DNA from: a virus | Lineage: Duplodnaviria > Heunggongvirae > Uroviricota > Caudoviricetes | Virus record (IMG/VR): IMGVR_UViG_2744054962_000001 | Strand: one strand, 5' to 3' | DNA length: 64,000 nt | Part shown: piece after piece, positions 8,914 through 54,989 of the stretch | Position numbering within the stretch: the first letter of the stretch is position 1 | Layout: every line of letters starts with the position of its first letter | The notes under the pieces: generated by a model | Told to the model about the DNA's origin: nothing | Database searches by the model: none | What the model saw: the letters and a program-made list of their open reading frames with translations, nothing else | Translations under genes and position numbers: made by a program

Positions 8914-9051
8914 ATAGAAGTGACCTGACAGCTACAACTGGACAAGATTAAGAGCATTTTTTATAAACGAAAATAAACGCCTACATTGATAAGTAGATAC
9001 ATACTTATATTTCTGTAAGAATATGCTCGACGAAGGAATTGAGGAACCTTT

Positions 9052-24610: not shown

Positions 24611-24883
24611 AAAGAATTATGGCGCTTGTTGAGGAAGTCACTCCTCTTACGCACTTTGTTTTGCCATGCCGGCAGTTAGCTTCTGCCTTTGACTATTCAT
24701 GCGGCAACCCCGCATTTCGCCACAATGGGCAATTCACTTTTATGGAATAAACTGGCCGTTGTGTCGATTTAATTAGCATGGCCTTACCATGCTAATTTAT
24801 TCAACTTGTACAATCCTACAAATCTATCCACTCAGGCTTACACCGTCTTCGTTATTGTAGAAATGAGGATCATCAGCGTTGAA

Positions 24884-25099
24884 TCAGCTTAGAGCAACGA
24901 CATTTGCTGCTGCTGGGCCTTTAGCACCATTCTCGATAGAGAATTCGACCTGCTGGCCTTCTTCCAAAGTGCGGAAATTATTACTCTGAATTGCCGAAAA
25001 ATGTACAAAAACATCTTTACTGCCATCAGCAGGAGAAATAAAGCCAAAGCCTTTATCAGAGTTAAACCATTTTACTAAACCAGTCATTTTATTAGACAT
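24884..25099 (-). CDS. Cold-shock protein (CspA family)
   Basis: [21 protein letters not shown]...[10 protein letters not shown] cold-shock domain with RNP motifs; ORF-track N-terminal extension is probably 5-prime UTR. Confidence 0.8.
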
Positions 25100-25403
25100 A
25101 GATATTACCTTCTTAATTTTGTGAGCCACATAGTGCGGCGAGAATTTGATCTGTATAGATTGGGACTTACTTAGGCACTTAAGGAGGAGGCTCACGAAGA
25201 AGGGAAATCAGAAGATAACACTGAACTGAGACTGCTTTACTAAAACTGCTTACATAAGGTCTGTCTTGCAAACCAACGATGCTATTAACGCATACCCCTT
25301 CTTTTCATGCAACCTTTATTTTTCAAAGATAACTAATTTTTGTCACCATTGGTTTAGTAAACGTTAACGAACCAGACGATGCCAGACACCTTTACAGAGA
25401 ACA

Positions 25404-29382: not shown

Positions 29383-31722
29383 ATGGCAAAAGGAAAATCC
29401 GCACTGGCACTTGCTCTGAAAAAGAAAATCGGTAGCAACGACGAAATTCAGAAAGTAACTCATTGGATTGATACAGGCTTTCCACCGTTAAACAAAGCTA
29501 TTTCTGGTCGTTACGATGGCGGCTTCCCATGTGGTCGTATCGTCGAAGTATTCGGTCCTCCAAGCGCGGGGAAATGTGTTACCGCAGACACCATGCTGCT
29601 GACGGAGCGTGGAATGGTAACAGTGAAAGAGTTGTTTGAGATTGAAGGGTACAAAGCGACATGCACTACTCGCGATGTAGAGCATAACGTTGGACTCATC
29701 AATGAAAATGGCGTGATAGAGAAGACCTCACACCTGACATGGAACAACCGTCGCAAATTCAAGCGTATTAAGCTGGCATCAGGCGGTTATATCGAGGCTA
29801 CGTTCCGTCACCCAATCCGTGTGGTTGACGACTTAGGTAATGTCGTCTGGCGACATGCTGAAAAAATCAGTGTAGGCGACACGATTCCTTCAATGGTTGG
29901 CACACATCAATTCGGCGATCAGCACCTGGATGCCAATATCGCAAAACTGATGGGCTATTTAATTGCTGACGGATACGTGGCCTCTGAAAATTCAGTGAAT
30001 TTTTCTAACACAGATCCTTTCATCAAGGATGAGTACTACCGCCTCATTTCGCTGGTATCAGACAAGATGCCAGTTACGAGAAAACATAACGGCTCGGAAG
30101 ACCATGTGCTGTTTAGCAAAGAGGTGCGTTCGCTGCTTTTTAAAGAATATGGTCTGGAGTATGAGAAAGCTGCTGGCAAGCAGGTTCCGTTGAGTGTGCG
30201 TCGCGCCAATAGCGAGGCTCAAATTGCATTCCTTCGCGGCTACTTTGAGCTGGAATGCCACGTCAATGATGGTCGCTGCATTGAGGTTGTGAGCGCGAGT
30301 GGGCTGCTGCTACAGCAAATTCGCCTCATGCTCCTGAATCTGGGGATTACGTCAACTATCTCTGAAAAACACGTCGCGGGTTATGAAAATACATATTACC
30401 GGCTGTCATTCAGTGGCTCTAATTACGACCTTTTTCTGTCAACGATTGGTTTCGAATCTCCGGCACGTTTATCAGTGGCAACCAAACGGGACATTGGTTT
30501 TGACCGCACTTACTCAGGCTATGTTCCGCACATCAGCGGCTTAGTGAAATCACTCTACGAGTCGCTCACCAAGACCACCCGTGAAGACTACGCTCTGGTA
30601 GACCACGTTATTGGCCGCGGCGATCGTGTCGGAATAGACAAACTGCGAGAAATCTATGTCTCCTTCATTGGCAGAAAGAATCGTTTTAACGAGCATCTGT
30701 TTGCACAACTGGCAGCGGTAATTGGCTCTAACTTGTTCTACGACGAAGTCGTGGCTATTGAGGAAGGTGAAGCACCAACGTTCGACGTAGCGATGCCGGA
30801 AACACACTCTTTCTGGTCTAACGGGATTATCAGCCACAACACATTCCTTGCAACAGCAGCGATGATCTCCGCTCAAAAACAAGATGGTCTGGCGGTATTC
30901 CTCGATCATGAAAACAGTTTTGACGTTGGCCTGGCTGTAGCCAATGGCCTGAACGCAGATGAGGATGACGGTCAGTGGGTATACAAGCAGCCTGATACCT
31001 TCGAAGACTCTGTAGAGTTGATCGGCACAATACTTAAATTGGTACGTGATGAAGAGCTTATCCCCGAATCAGCACCTATCTGTATCGTGGCTGACTCTCT
31101 TGCGTCTATGGTTCCGAACTCCAAAGCCGAGAAGTTCGAAAAGATGGCTGAAGGCACTGCCAAAGACAAAGATCAGCTAAACATGAACGACAATACGGCA
31201 CTGGCTCGTGCGACGAGTGCGAACTTCCCTACTCTGGCTTTGTGGGCACGCAAATACAACGCCTGCATCATCTTCTTGAATCAGGTTCGCACAAAAATCG
31301 GTGTAATGTTTGGCGACCCTACTACGTCGCCAGGTGGAGATTCACCGAAGTTCTACGCATCTGTACGTATCCGTCTTGGTGCATCGGTGATGAAGGATGG
31401 TAAAGAGAAGATCGGTCAGGACGTAGGCGCAGAATGCATCAAAAACAAAGTTGCACCACCGTATGGCAAATGCACCTGGAAATTCTACTTCGATCCTACT
31501 CGTGGCCTCGACGTTATCGAGTCGCTCGTCGAGTACATGCTGGAAGAAGGATACCTGCCAAAGAACGCCAGCGGTCGAGTAGAAATTGGTGACAAGAAAT
31601 ACACCAAATCACAGATCGTCGAGATGTATCGGGAGAAGCCACTGGCTGAAATCATTGCGGCTTTGCAGGCAATCGACGACCGAAGAGCAAAAGACAACCC
31701 CACCGAGTCAGTAGAAGAGTAA
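29383..31722 (+). CDS. RecA/UvsX-like recombinase interrupted by an intein
   Basis: P-loop GPPSAGK split from TFLATAAMISAQ by 422 aa; extein about 357 aa. Confidence 0.75.
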   Translation: MAKGKSALALALKKKIGSNDEIQKVTHWIDTGFPPLNKAISGRYDGGFPCGRIVEVFGPPSAGKCVTADTMLLTERGMVTVKELFEIEGYKATCTTRDVEHNVGLINENGVIEKTSHLTWNNRRKFKRIKLASGGYIEATFRHPIRVVDDLGNVVWRHAEKISVGDTIPSMVGTHQFGDQHLDANIAKLMGYLIADGYVASENSVNFSNTDPFIKDEYYRLISLVSDKMPVTRKHNGSEDHVLFSKEVRSLLFKEYGLEYEKAAGKQVPLSVRRANSEAQIAFLRGYFELECHVNDGRCIEVVSASGLLLQQIRLMLLNLGITSTISEKHVAGYENTYYRLSFSGSNYDLFLSTIGFESPARLSVATKRDIGFDRTYSGYVPHISGLVKSLYESLTKTTREDYALVDHVIGRGDRVGIDKLREIYVSFIGRKNRFNEHLFAQLAAVIGSNLFYDEVVAIEEGEAPTFDVAMPETHSFWSNGIISHNTFLATAAMISAQKQDGLAVFLDHENSFDVGLAVANGLNADEDDGQWVYKQPDTFEDSVELIGTILKLVRDEELIPESAPICIVADSLASMVPNSKAEKFEKMAEGTAKDKDQLNMNDNTALARATSANFPTLALWARKYNACIIFLNQVRTKIGVMFGDPTTSPGGDSPKFYASVRIRLGASVMKDGKEKIGQDVGAECIKNKVAPPYGKCTWKFYFDPTRGLDVIESLVEYMLEEGYLPKNASGRVEIGDKKYTKSQIVEMYREKPLAEIIAALQAIDDRRAKDNPTESVEE
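29575..30840 (+). mobile_element. Intein with LAGLIDADG homing endonuclease domain inserted in the RecA P-loop
   Basis: Begins with Cys after GPPSAGK, ends SHN followed by Thr; LAGLIDADG-like blocks LMGYLIADGYV and FLRGYFELECHV. Confidence 0.7.
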
Positions 31723-53480: not shown

Positions 53481-53581
53481 ATATCAGAGACTCCCAGACC
53501 TGAACACCACTACAGAATCCACTAGAACCCCTTCCCAGACGCTTTAAAATCGATTTTATGAACCACTTTAAGGAAACCAAC

Positions 53582-53812
53582 ATGTCATATCCGACTAATG
53601 TCGTTGCGCTCGTAGAGAGCGATTTTCTGGCCCAGGCTCGTGAAATGATGAAAGATCGTGAGCAGGCTTTCAACTTGTACGAATGGGCAATTAAGTGCTT
53701 GCATCTTGGGGAGCATCGCGAACTTGTTGAACAGCTTTTAGGTGAGTTGATCAACGAGGTGTTTGCCTTGAATGTTCAACTACATGGTCGAAAAAATAAT
53801 CAATCGAAATGA
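53582..53812 (+). CDS. Hypothetical protein
   Basis: ATG at 53582 preceded by AAGGAAACCAAC; 76 aa. Confidence 0.4.
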   Translation: MSYPTNVVALVESDFLAQAREMMKDREQAFNLYEWAIKCLHLGEHRELVEQLLGELINEVFALNVQLHGRKNNQSK

Positions 53813-54395
53813 TAGATAAGTACAAACTATTCATAAAGTGAATTGTAAGTGCTAAGATCTGATAGTTTCCAGTCGTAGACTGGAGACTCGACCTGATGGG
53901 TGGGGGTAAGCGTCACTGGCGTCAGGTTTAAAAAAGCTCACTACCAGCGTAGAACCGGTGCCGTTTAGGTGTCGGGGAAGGGGGAACCAAAGTGAGCAGA
54001 GACAAGGGTCACTTTATGATTGTCGAGTCTGGGGTGTTTCGAGAGGTTGAATCCAGTACTCCCCTTCATAAAGTGTGGGAAGATCTCGGTTCTGGGGTGC
54101 TGTCATCCATAACTTCCCAAGTCTAAGCTGGCAGTAGACTTAGACCATAGCTTTTCAGGTTATGAAACGACCAGGTTGGTGAGGAATTTTATACTCACCT
54201 CCCTGGGAGAGTATTACCTGAAAAGACAACCTCTCACTTCGTTCGAGGTGAACTTCACTCACTTCGTTCGTTCAGTTCAGGTTTATAAAAAACCTGTTCT
54301 GGGAAGTAATTTGTTTATTTTAATAATTATTAACACGCACGCGTGTGCGCACGCGCGAGGAAAAAATCGGCGCGGCGCTTGATTCAGGAGTTTAT
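53813..54395. other. ORF-poor structured region (candidate ncRNA or regulatory region) ending in a 25-bp alternating purine-pyrimidine tract
   Basis: No ORF of 60 aa or more on + strand across about 360 bp; multiple local hairpins; direct repeat TCACTTCGTTCG x2; Z-DNA-prone ACACGCACGCGTGTGCGCACGCGCG at 54333-54357. Confidence 0.3.
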
Positions 54396-54989
54396 ATGAC
54401 GACGAAGACACCAGCCCGATCGCAAGCAAAAACTCGCAAAAAAGCCAAAAACAAAAATTCTCCCCGCACCAATCCAACAACGCCTGTCGTAGAGTTCAAT
54501 CCCCAGCTCAAAACCGTGAAAATCTTTAGTGATGGCTCTTGCCTTAAAAATCCGGGTGGCCCGGGCGGTTACGGTATCGTTCTCCAGTATCGTGGTGAGG
54601 AACGCGAGTTCTCAGATGGTTTTCATAGCACCACCAATAACCGCATGGAGATGATGGGCGCACTTATCGGGCTGGAGCGTTTGAAATATCCATGCAACGT
54701 TATTTTGTACTCTGATAGCCAGTATCTGAAAAACGGCATGACACAGTGGATGAAATGGTGGAAACGTAATGGATGGATGACTTCTGATAAAAAACCGGTA
54801 AAGAATGTTGATCTGTGGAAACGTCTGGATGAGGCCGCAAGTCGACATAATGTTCGCTGGAAGTGGGTTAAAGGTCACGCCGGGCATCGTGAAAATGAAA
54901 TATGTGATCGACTCGCGAAGATCGCAGCTTTTTCAGCAGCAGATATGCCTCACAAGAAAGATATTGGTTTTGTTTATAACAAGTGGTAA
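54396..54989 (+). CDS. rnhA: Ribonuclease HI with basic N-terminal extension
   Basis: [49 protein letters not shown] match RNase HI; SD CAGGAG upstream of ATG 54396. Confidence 0.85.

Follow-up and report, generated by a model that had tools for sequence, protein, structure and literature searches.

The main feature of the gap ahead of the RNase HI gene rnhA in the viral record IMGVR_UViG_2744054962_000001 (Caudoviricetes) is, as judged from its sequence, a non-coding, structured element of approximately 445 nucleotides (nt), located on the plus strand at about 53865-54310 of the 64,000-nt stretch of DNA that we analyzed as a whole and refer to as the window. On balance, we lean toward the view that this element is a stand-alone structured RNA gene specific to SSU5/pHCM2-like phage-plasmids of Enterobacteriaceae. 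That it founds a novel class of large RNAs or ribonucleoproteins which act in trans during lysogeny is a more tentative proposal, which we entertain seriously without quite favoring it. The option of a large structured non-coding RNA had been raised, among others, in a sequence-only reading of this DNA, and it is now well supported by sequence conservation, by covariation, by a conserved promoter, and by published RNA-seq data.

SSU5/pHCM2-like phage-plasmids are common in clinical Enterobacteriaceae and can carry resistance genes, and enterobacterial genomes are those most thoroughly mined for RNAs; this RNA of approximately 445 nt is nevertheless still found in no RNA database. It is a candidate regulator of phage-plasmid lysogeny, replication or host interaction. 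Two annotations are corrected by our analysis: that of the open reading frame (ORF) CYRAN_81 of the phage-plasmid Cyrano as a protein, and that of an upstream GTG as the start codon of rnhA.

Conservation, fold and predicted promoter of the RNA

Positions 53900-54300 are 89-94% identical between the window and 12 divergent relatives, as compared with 70-82% in the flanking protein genes and 75% in the segment 54300-54399; conservation in this neighborhood thus peaks in the non-coding core. The plus-strand RNA is predicted to fold with -212 kcal/mol (z = -7.3), a value matched by none of 100 shuffled sequences, and the minus strand reaches z = -4.9. The consensus structure that RNAalifold derived from 30 non-redundant copies of the element contains 137 pairs in approximately 18 helices, and 99.3% of the cells of this alignment are paired on that structure. 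Eight pairs show changes on both sides, and these amount to 40 cells; shuffled alignments gave 10.2 +/- 3 such cells, none of them (0/500) being as high, and slid controls gave 0-2 pairs and 0-4 cells. Helix H1 carries three such double changes within one lineage. Both hairpins that had been picked out from the letters of the sequence are present, GTCTAAG (54121-27) with CTTAGAC (54139-45) and GGTGAG (54178-83) with CTCACC (54194-99), and the first of them reads GCCTAAG/CTTAGGT, GCTTAAG/CTTAAGC or ACCTAAG/CTTAGGT in relatives. Approximately 15 pairs are G·U in most sequences, and since these become A·C mismatches on the opposite strand, the plus strand is the one that folds in this way.

Two further features of the core are repeated. 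The heptamer UGGGAAG occurs at 54076-82 and again at 54300-06; CUUCCCA, which is present once (54113-19), is complementary to both copies and could pair with either. The direct repeat noticed in the sequence-only reading, TCACTTCGTTCG, is indeed present twice and corresponds to two invariant copies of the 13-mer CTCACTTCGTTCG; Tandem Repeats Finder reported no array at the locus. Neither CTCACTTCGTTCG nor its complement recurs elsewhere in the 110-kb plasmid with up to two mismatches, and a search for antisense targets of the RNA or of CTCACTTCGTTCG that covered the window plus the remaining 47 kb of the plasmid returned chance-level 12-mers only.

A scan of the whole window with Rfam 15 at gathering threshold detected a cspA element and three tRNAs only, and none of these at the element; when the segment 53700-54500 was searched at E <= 10, the best match, to a hepatitis C virus (HCV) stem-loop model, scored 21 bits against a gathering score of 56. 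We found no published description of such an RNA in SSU5, in pHCM2 or in phage-plasmids. We class the element as a new family of structured RNA, of a kind that is known in general. It resembles GOLLD, ROOL, HEARO, OLE and raiA in being several hundred nucleotides long, rich in helices and carried by phages or mobile elements, in being conserved above the level of its neighbor proteins, and in having a function that cannot be read from genomic context. Unlike these RNAs, none of whose Rfam models it matches at E <= 10, it is confined to a narrow range of Enterobacteriaceae phage-plasmids and possesses a recognizable sigma-70 promoter with an operator-like box.

The putative promoter is marked by a TAnnAT hexamer that lies exactly 6 nt ahead of the first G of the 5'-terminal hairpin P0 in each of the 41 upstream variants; TGn stands before it in all lineages but one, and the bases that flank it differ among lineages. 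This box at fixed spacing points to an extended -10 promoter of the sigma-70 type with a predicted start at about 53865. A simple consensus promoter scan did not report the site at 53830-58, of which 8 of 12 positions match. Hairpin P0, which directly abuts the core, folds with a G-C closing pair in each of 20 sequence variants (-3.4 to -15.7 kcal/mol), its stem sequence being entirely different among lineages.

Just ahead of the -35 region, a (G/A)(G/A)TAAGTA(C/G) box is conserved in 41/41 upstream variants amid surrounding bases that vary. It belongs to the palindromic motif ATAAGTA..TACTTAT (ATAAGTA-N-TACTTAT), of which the RNA promoter of the E. coli type holds a half-site only; in Klebsiella/Salmonella-type relatives, the operator-like box is the perfect palindrome GGTAAGTACTTACC. 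The pattern RTAAGTASWWAC has 19 matches in the window, where 2.75 would be expected, and none of 100 shuffled sequences contained as many. These sites span 4403-60556 (e.g., 8989-9000, 12571-86, 16924-35, 26981-92, 31767-78, 43225-36, 47937-52 and 53816-27), and most of them are located just 5' of plus-strand genes of the replication module (gp32, RNR, thyA), where they abut -35-like hexamers. We consider RTAAGTASWWAC probably to be the shared operator of a phage-plasmid regulator.

Transcription, coding potential and the 3' side

The phage-plasmid Cyrano (pLF82) is 97.6% identical to the window at this locus, and its 44-amino-acid (aa) hypothetical protein CYRAN_81 lies within the RNA core. 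In overnight LB cultures, normalized counts were 117 for CYRAN_81, 9.5 for the upstream ORF CYRAN_80 and 8.4 for rnhA (CYRAN_82) (PMC9928086, Table 1/S1 Table; GEO GSE154648), which places CYRAN_81 approximately 12-14-fold over both neighbors. Across ten samples, log2(FPKM+5), with FPKM denoting fragments per kilobase per million, was 6.8-10.35 for CYRAN_81 and 2.6-5.0 for rnhA, an excess of 6-50-fold; the peak was found in macrophages at 6 h (PMC9928086). According to the same data, the level of the RNA is approximately ten-fold higher inside macrophages than in overnight LB culture. The RNA region is transcribed in lysogens well above both neighbor genes. The checks suggested along with the sequence-only reading therefore yielded no Rfam family, transcription in published data, and helices that covary; with an RNA-seq signal and a conservation peak, the region is neither transcriptionally silent nor unconserved.

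The authors of the RNA-seq study read CYRAN_81 as a protein, a "moron", from its expression (PMC9928086), and the ORF is annotated as such a coding region in OV696614.1. That it is a real coding sequence is contradicted by indels of 1 and 2 nt at TCTGGGGTGTTT that shift its frame in Klebsiella/Salmonella-type relatives, where an unrelated peptide follows after about codon 6 (counted from the internal ATG 54016). Likewise, a 68-aa plus-strand ORF with a TTG start (54176-54382) is broken by indels of 1-2 nt in relatives. Given the presence of this ORF, the statement of the sequence-only reading that about 360 bp of the region hold no plus-strand ORF of 60 aa or more is incorrect to the letter, whereas the non-coding nature of the region stands. 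The indels sit in loops and interrupt both small ORFs (53992-54126 and 54176-54382), and we regard the region as non-coding for this reason. Taken together with conservation and covariation, these frame-shifting indels lead us to view the CYRAN_81 region as RNA, not protein. Nucleotide conservation is moreover uniform and reaches far past the CYRAN_81 ORF, which spans 135 nt of the roughly 445 that are conserved. That the element is a moron gene for a small protein is accordingly the least probable of all readings that we considered.

The core ends 85 nt ahead of the ATG of rnhA. The AT- and U-rich spacer that follows it could serve as the U-rich 3' end of the RNA, as the rnhA promoter, or as both; next in order are an alternating purine-pyrimidine tract, an A-run (5-11 A in most variants), GGCGCGGCGC, and the Shine-Dalgarno sequence. 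The alternation of the tract is perfect, as the sequence-only reading had stated, and the tract is the longest such run in the window, with the next longest measuring 15 nt. In 200 first-order Markov simulations, the longest run had a mean of 16 nt and a maximum of 24 nt, so that 25 nt or more were attained in none of them. Perfect alternation is retained in 35/35 variants with lengths of 18-29 nt that differ in steps of 2, 4, 6 or 8 nt, a behavior that looks microsatellite-like. Being G+C-rich, long and alternating, the tract may be prone to form Z-DNA or a cruciform. Its location beside the gene of an R-loop-processing enzyme, to which the sequence-only reading had drawn attention, is confirmed, as is the identity of rnhA as an RNase HI gene; however, the tract does not belong to the core of the element, as it lies 3' of the RNA in a less conserved spacer (~75%). 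A simpler account is that, within the rnhA leader, it contributes one arm to a GC-rich hairpin of the RNA or is a microsatellite. RNAalifold helices 17 and 18, which comprise the tract and the downstream GC segment, are 97-99% paired; they display one-sided, G·U-compatible changes only and no changes on both sides.

A stand-alone RNA and its rivals

On the reading of a stand-alone RNA gene, transcription starts at a sigma-70 extended -10 promoter that belongs to the element itself and whose operator-like box is shared by promoters of the replication module. The RNA opens with the P0 hairpin, folds into a multi-domain structure of approximately 18 helices, and accumulates in lysogens well above the genes on its two sides. 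Many of its unpaired nucleotides are invariant, among them the duplicated CUCACUUCGUUCG and the G-rich GGGGAAGGGGGAACC, and these are probably points of contact with a partner, be it a protein or a nucleic acid. The 3' ends of most transcripts, whether produced by termination or by trimming, probably lie within the U-rich spacer or the GC hairpin, so that little transcription would proceed into rnhA during lysogeny. The 6-50-fold drop of the transcript ahead of rnhA could result from non-canonical or Rho-dependent termination, or from the stability of the folded RNA.

Several observations weigh against this proposal. The known relatives are all at least 86% identical, and covariation amounts to eight pairs plus P0, most helices being invariant. 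No complementary target for the RNA was found in the plasmid, and the stretch from the core to rnhA yielded no canonical intrinsic terminator. Furthermore, the RNA is wholly absent from two viral contigs (L064/L065, at ~2300-2500), both deletion derivatives that join the RNR promoter and the initial nrdA codons to the 5' part of rnhA; relative to the window, approximately 11 kb including thyA, dhfr, dam and the RNA are gone, and the rnhA frame looks damaged. The RNA-seq data (PMC9928086) are given per gene and their strand-specificity is unstated, so that strand and transcript ends rest on our sequence analysis. Finally, premature termination of a leader would leave the RNA-seq pattern unchanged.

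This last point, in conjunction with the alternative pairings of UGGGAAG and CUUCCCA, makes a cis-acting leader or attenuator of rnhA and of the co-directional genes after it a serious rival, even though we deem it unlikely. In such a scenario, a constitutive promoter would drive a folded leader that halts transcription before rnhA in lysogens, the abundant RNA would be the terminated leader, and a signal or phage factor in lytic growth would switch the fold to permit read-through. Consistent with this model, the RNA is located directly 5' of rnhA and co-oriented with it, an arrangement shared by all 68 full-length copies found beside an rnhA relative in viral contigs, and there is no clear separate rnhA promoter. 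The two copies of UGGGAAG facing a single CUUCCCA suggest mutually exclusive folds, the sequence after the second copy is U-rich in every lineage, a GC hairpin is positioned just 5' of the Shine-Dalgarno sequence, and leader reads exceed ORF reads as from an attenuator in its "off" state. On the other hand, 445 nt with approximately 18 helices far exceed known leaders, being two to four times the typical leader size of riboswitches and attenuators, and the element matches no known aptamer or leader family in Rfam and lacks a canonical terminator. The Shine-Dalgarno sequence is free in every predicted fold, and distant phage rnhA genes (39-49% identity) have no copy of the element and mostly no upstream gap, as they abut the preceding gene. 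The proposed switch elements are invariant, which renders covariation uninformative about them.

An RNA that primes DNA replication is less probable still, and we regard it as a long shot. A G-rich structured RNA would here form a persistent R-loop with the AT-rich and alternating GC stretch downstream of it, and cleavage by RNase HI, from the host or from the adjacent phage gene, would prime lytic or plasmid DNA synthesis, in a way resembling ColE1 RNA II, T4 oriF/oriG, or the mitochondrial LSP/CSB system. If true, a tailed phage-plasmid would possess an RNA-primed origin and an RNase H dedicated to it. The element adjoins rnhA in a replication module with T4-like parts (gp32-like SSB, FEN, RecA, SbcCD), the 5' third of the RNA is G-rich (GC skew +0.27) with G-clusters, and the AT-rich spacer retains its composition but not its sequence, as expected of an unwinding element, and is followed by the Z-/cruciform-prone tract. 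ColE1 RNA II, moreover, is similar in length to the element (about 450 nt). Yet local alignment with ColE1 (NC_001371.1) gave a score of 20, compared with 14 +/- 2.2 for shuffled sequences and a shuffle maximum of 24, and blastn was likewise not significant; no RNAI-like Rfam match was obtained, and a consensus scan found no minus-strand promoter inside the core, the sole nearby site (53871->53842) pointing away and being variable in sequence. Cumulative GC skew has no turning point at 54 kb, and the replicon is IncFIB-typed and dependent on a RepA initiator (Cyrano repA, PMC9928086). The idea of a replication or packaging cis-element, put forward in the sequence-only reading, therefore found no support. 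Even less probable is an element that acts solely as DNA (e.g., a packaging site, a partition site, an iteron origin, or a Z-DNA/cruciform element) and in which RNA structure would be incidental. Strong sequence conservation, the direct repeat of the 13-mer, an alternating tract kept in all lineages, and the beginning of the record of Klebsiella phage vB_KpnS_p4727 about 300 bp ahead of the element would all suit it; however, compensatory changes preserve helices, approximately 15 conserved G·U pairs turn into A·C mismatches when the other strand is read, transcription is well above that of the neighbors, promoter and 5' hairpin are conserved, and terminase genes are found elsewhere on the plasmid. 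Like the small-protein reading, the DNA-only reading is largely excluded.

Comparison with characterized systems leads to a similar picture. With ColE1 RNA II the element shares a structured transcript of ~450-550 nt, G-clusters, a link to RNase H suggested by the neighbor gene, and a 15-nt patch, ACGCGC(G)AG(G)AAAAAA, which is not significant. Membership in the ColE1 RNA II family was rejected, as no score rose above the shuffle range and Rfam gave no RNAI match; further differences are that no antisense RNA I was found and that the replicon is of the IncFIB type. P4 CI RNA, P1/P7 c4 and N15 CA RNA are likewise RNAs of the lysogenic or plasmid state, lie within or ahead of genes for lytic functions, contain a repeated short element, and coincide with downstream genes that are kept low. 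In contrast to the element, they measure ~70-80 nt and act via complementary sites in the same operon; for the element, no complementary site was found in the plasmid, and there is no Rfam match, the c4-type model included if Rfam holds one. To riboswitches and attenuators it bears the resemblance of a 5' leader position, alternative pairings and leader reads far above ORF reads. A type III toxin-antitoxin system (ToxI-like) was also considered and discarded: there is no tandem array, the downstream gene encodes a canonical RNase HI, and PADLOC matched none of the eight neighbor proteins, which likewise gives no hint of a defense system.

Replicon, occurrence and neighboring features

The window is a phage-plasmid of the SSU5/pHCM2 type. 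A segment of 1.8 kb around the locus is 99.9% identical to non-mobilizable IncFIB plasmids of E. coli of approximately 110 kb, and matches to it are present in 685 PLSDB records (Klebsiella, Escherichia, Enterobacter, Salmonella, Citrobacter and Cronobacter), as well as in the phages SSU5, Cyrano, CMS-2020a and several Klebsiella phages; in 602 of the 685 records, the match covers the RNA and both flanking genes. The RNA element itself is present in 687 PLSDB plasmids and in the phages SSU5 and Cyrano. Among complete E. coli genomes, 232 of 5,426 (4.3%) contain it, with no feature annotated under the element in any of the 232, and in the RefSeq and PLSDB records examined, it is unannotated save for the hypothetical protein in Cyrano. 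In viral contigs, rnhA relatives of at least 76% aa identity all have the element at a nucleotide identity of at least 86%, with the exception of L064/L065 and of contigs cut at the gene. Searches of PLSDB and of the phage collection with blastn (word size 11), of 320 loci with nhmmer, and of rnhA-guided IMG/VR loci recovered no homologues below ~86% identity. Judging from these searches, the range of the element is narrow, as all copies detected are at least 86% identical and reside in SSU5-like phage-plasmids of Enterobacteriaceae.

Table 1. Features in and around the RNA element (positions refer to the window)
Feature	Position	Strand	Remarks
84-aa ORF	53558-53812		upstream flank of the gap
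Operator-like box GATAGATAAGTACAAACTAT	53812..53831		directly upstream of, and overlapping, the -35 region
Putative sigma-70-type promoter	53830..53858	+	weak -35-like TTCATA (53830-35), 17-nt spacer, extended -10
Extended -10 box TGCTAAGAT (TGcTAAGAT)	53850-58	+	
P0, 5'-terminal hairpin	53865..53887	+	predicted transcription start G53865
Conserved RNA core	53888..54310	+	from conservation, RNAalifold and pair counts
Helix H1	53890-53928	+	
Helices H2-H4	53936-53997	+	
Large multi-branch domain	53999-54235	+	
CYRAN_81 (Cyrano, 44-aa hypothetical protein)	53992..54126	+	OV696614.1 at 78657-78791
CTCACTTCGTTCG (13-mer), two invariant copies	54233-45, 54258-70	+	25 nt start to start
Helix H15	54240-70	+	
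Helix H16	54271-54303	+	
Invariant CUGGGAAGUAA	to about 54310	+	closes the core
AT- and U-rich spacer	54311..54332	+	4.5% G+C; sequence and length vary among lineages
ACACGCACGCGTGTGCGCACGCGCG	54333..54357		perfectly alternating purine-pyrimidine tract, 25 nt
GC-rich hairpin	54342..54381	+	arms 54342-54 and 54372-81; A-run loop; few bases 5' of Shine-Dalgarno AGGAG (54386-90)
rnhA, RNase HI, 197 aa	54396..54989	+	Pfam PF00075 (RNase_H), E = 1.2e-45; PHROG 531

The host module of the element is a long plus-strand set of genes for replication and nucleotide metabolism that encodes a DnaE-like polymerase, a gp32-like SSB, FEN, an intein-containing RecA, SbcCD, RNR, ThyA, DHFR, a DnaQ-like exonuclease and Dam. 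The rnhA product carries a basic (lysine/arginine-rich) N-terminal extension of approximately 40 aa ahead of its RNase H domain. Some RefSeq records begin rnhA at an upstream GTG (54345), giving 215 aa; this start is unlikely because the extension (54345-54395) crosses the length-variable alternating tract and the A-run, and the true start is probably the ATG at 54396.

A 47-nt module containing both CTCACTTCGTTCG copies is found again, at approximately 90% identity, in a T4-like environmental phage that is unrelated; it forms an inverted pair in that genome. There (L102, 9025-9254; also L108, L115 and L199), the inverted copies lie about 170 bp apart in a 900-bp intergenic gap, one of them being followed by a T-run, and the gap is flanked by genes whose translations resemble T4 gp55/gp47 and UvsW. 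In both settings, the first CTCACTTCGTTCG copy occupies the loop of a small hairpin, with a stem that reads CCTC/GAGG in the window but CATC/GATG and AACAAC/GTTGTT in the T4-like phage. When prokaryotic genomes were scanned for the doubled 11-mer, the matches listed comprised many tandem arrays from diverse bacteria and archaea, mostly unrelated, and one copy of the element in full length (L303); TCACTTCGTTC forms the loop of a perfect, C-G-closed stem in roughly one fifth of the occurrences among these matches. Tandem hairpins with a constant TCACTTCGTTC loop and variable stems are seen in numerous bacterial and archaeal phyla among the same matches (L202-L321, e.g., L240 7400-7455, L246 3469-3502 and L205 6768-6807), and for the arrays listed there we found no recurrent neighbor gene or protein family and no Rfam match. 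Part of this yield is expected from tandem repeats that contain the searched word; this expectation does not by itself explain the regularity of the loop.

Other features of the replicon may be mentioned. The RecA-like protein of the window (29383-31722, plus strand) is split by an intein with a LAGLIDADG homing-endonuclease domain. The cspA thermoregulator reported by Rfam (RF01766, 187 bits) lies at 24859-25277 on the minus strand and belongs to a CspA-like gene with a long structured 5' untranslated region, and the three tRNA genes (Asn-GTT, Thr-TGT and Ser-TGA) form a cluster at 13339-13586 on the plus strand. Approximately 1 kb from this cluster, a 184-aa minus-strand ORF (14585-15139) without a Pfam domain adjoins the integrase/repressor region; it is the counterpart of CYRAN_43, by far the top gene of Cyrano in the LF82 RNA-seq data at 723-fold over the prophage background (PMC9928086). 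Outside the window, the rest of the plasmid (L201, NZ_CP031294.1, 37000-83750) encodes MetG (methionyl-tRNA synthetase), ApbC, a homologue of the Pol III theta subunit, an S24 peptidase, type I restriction-modification genes and a siphovirus structural module.

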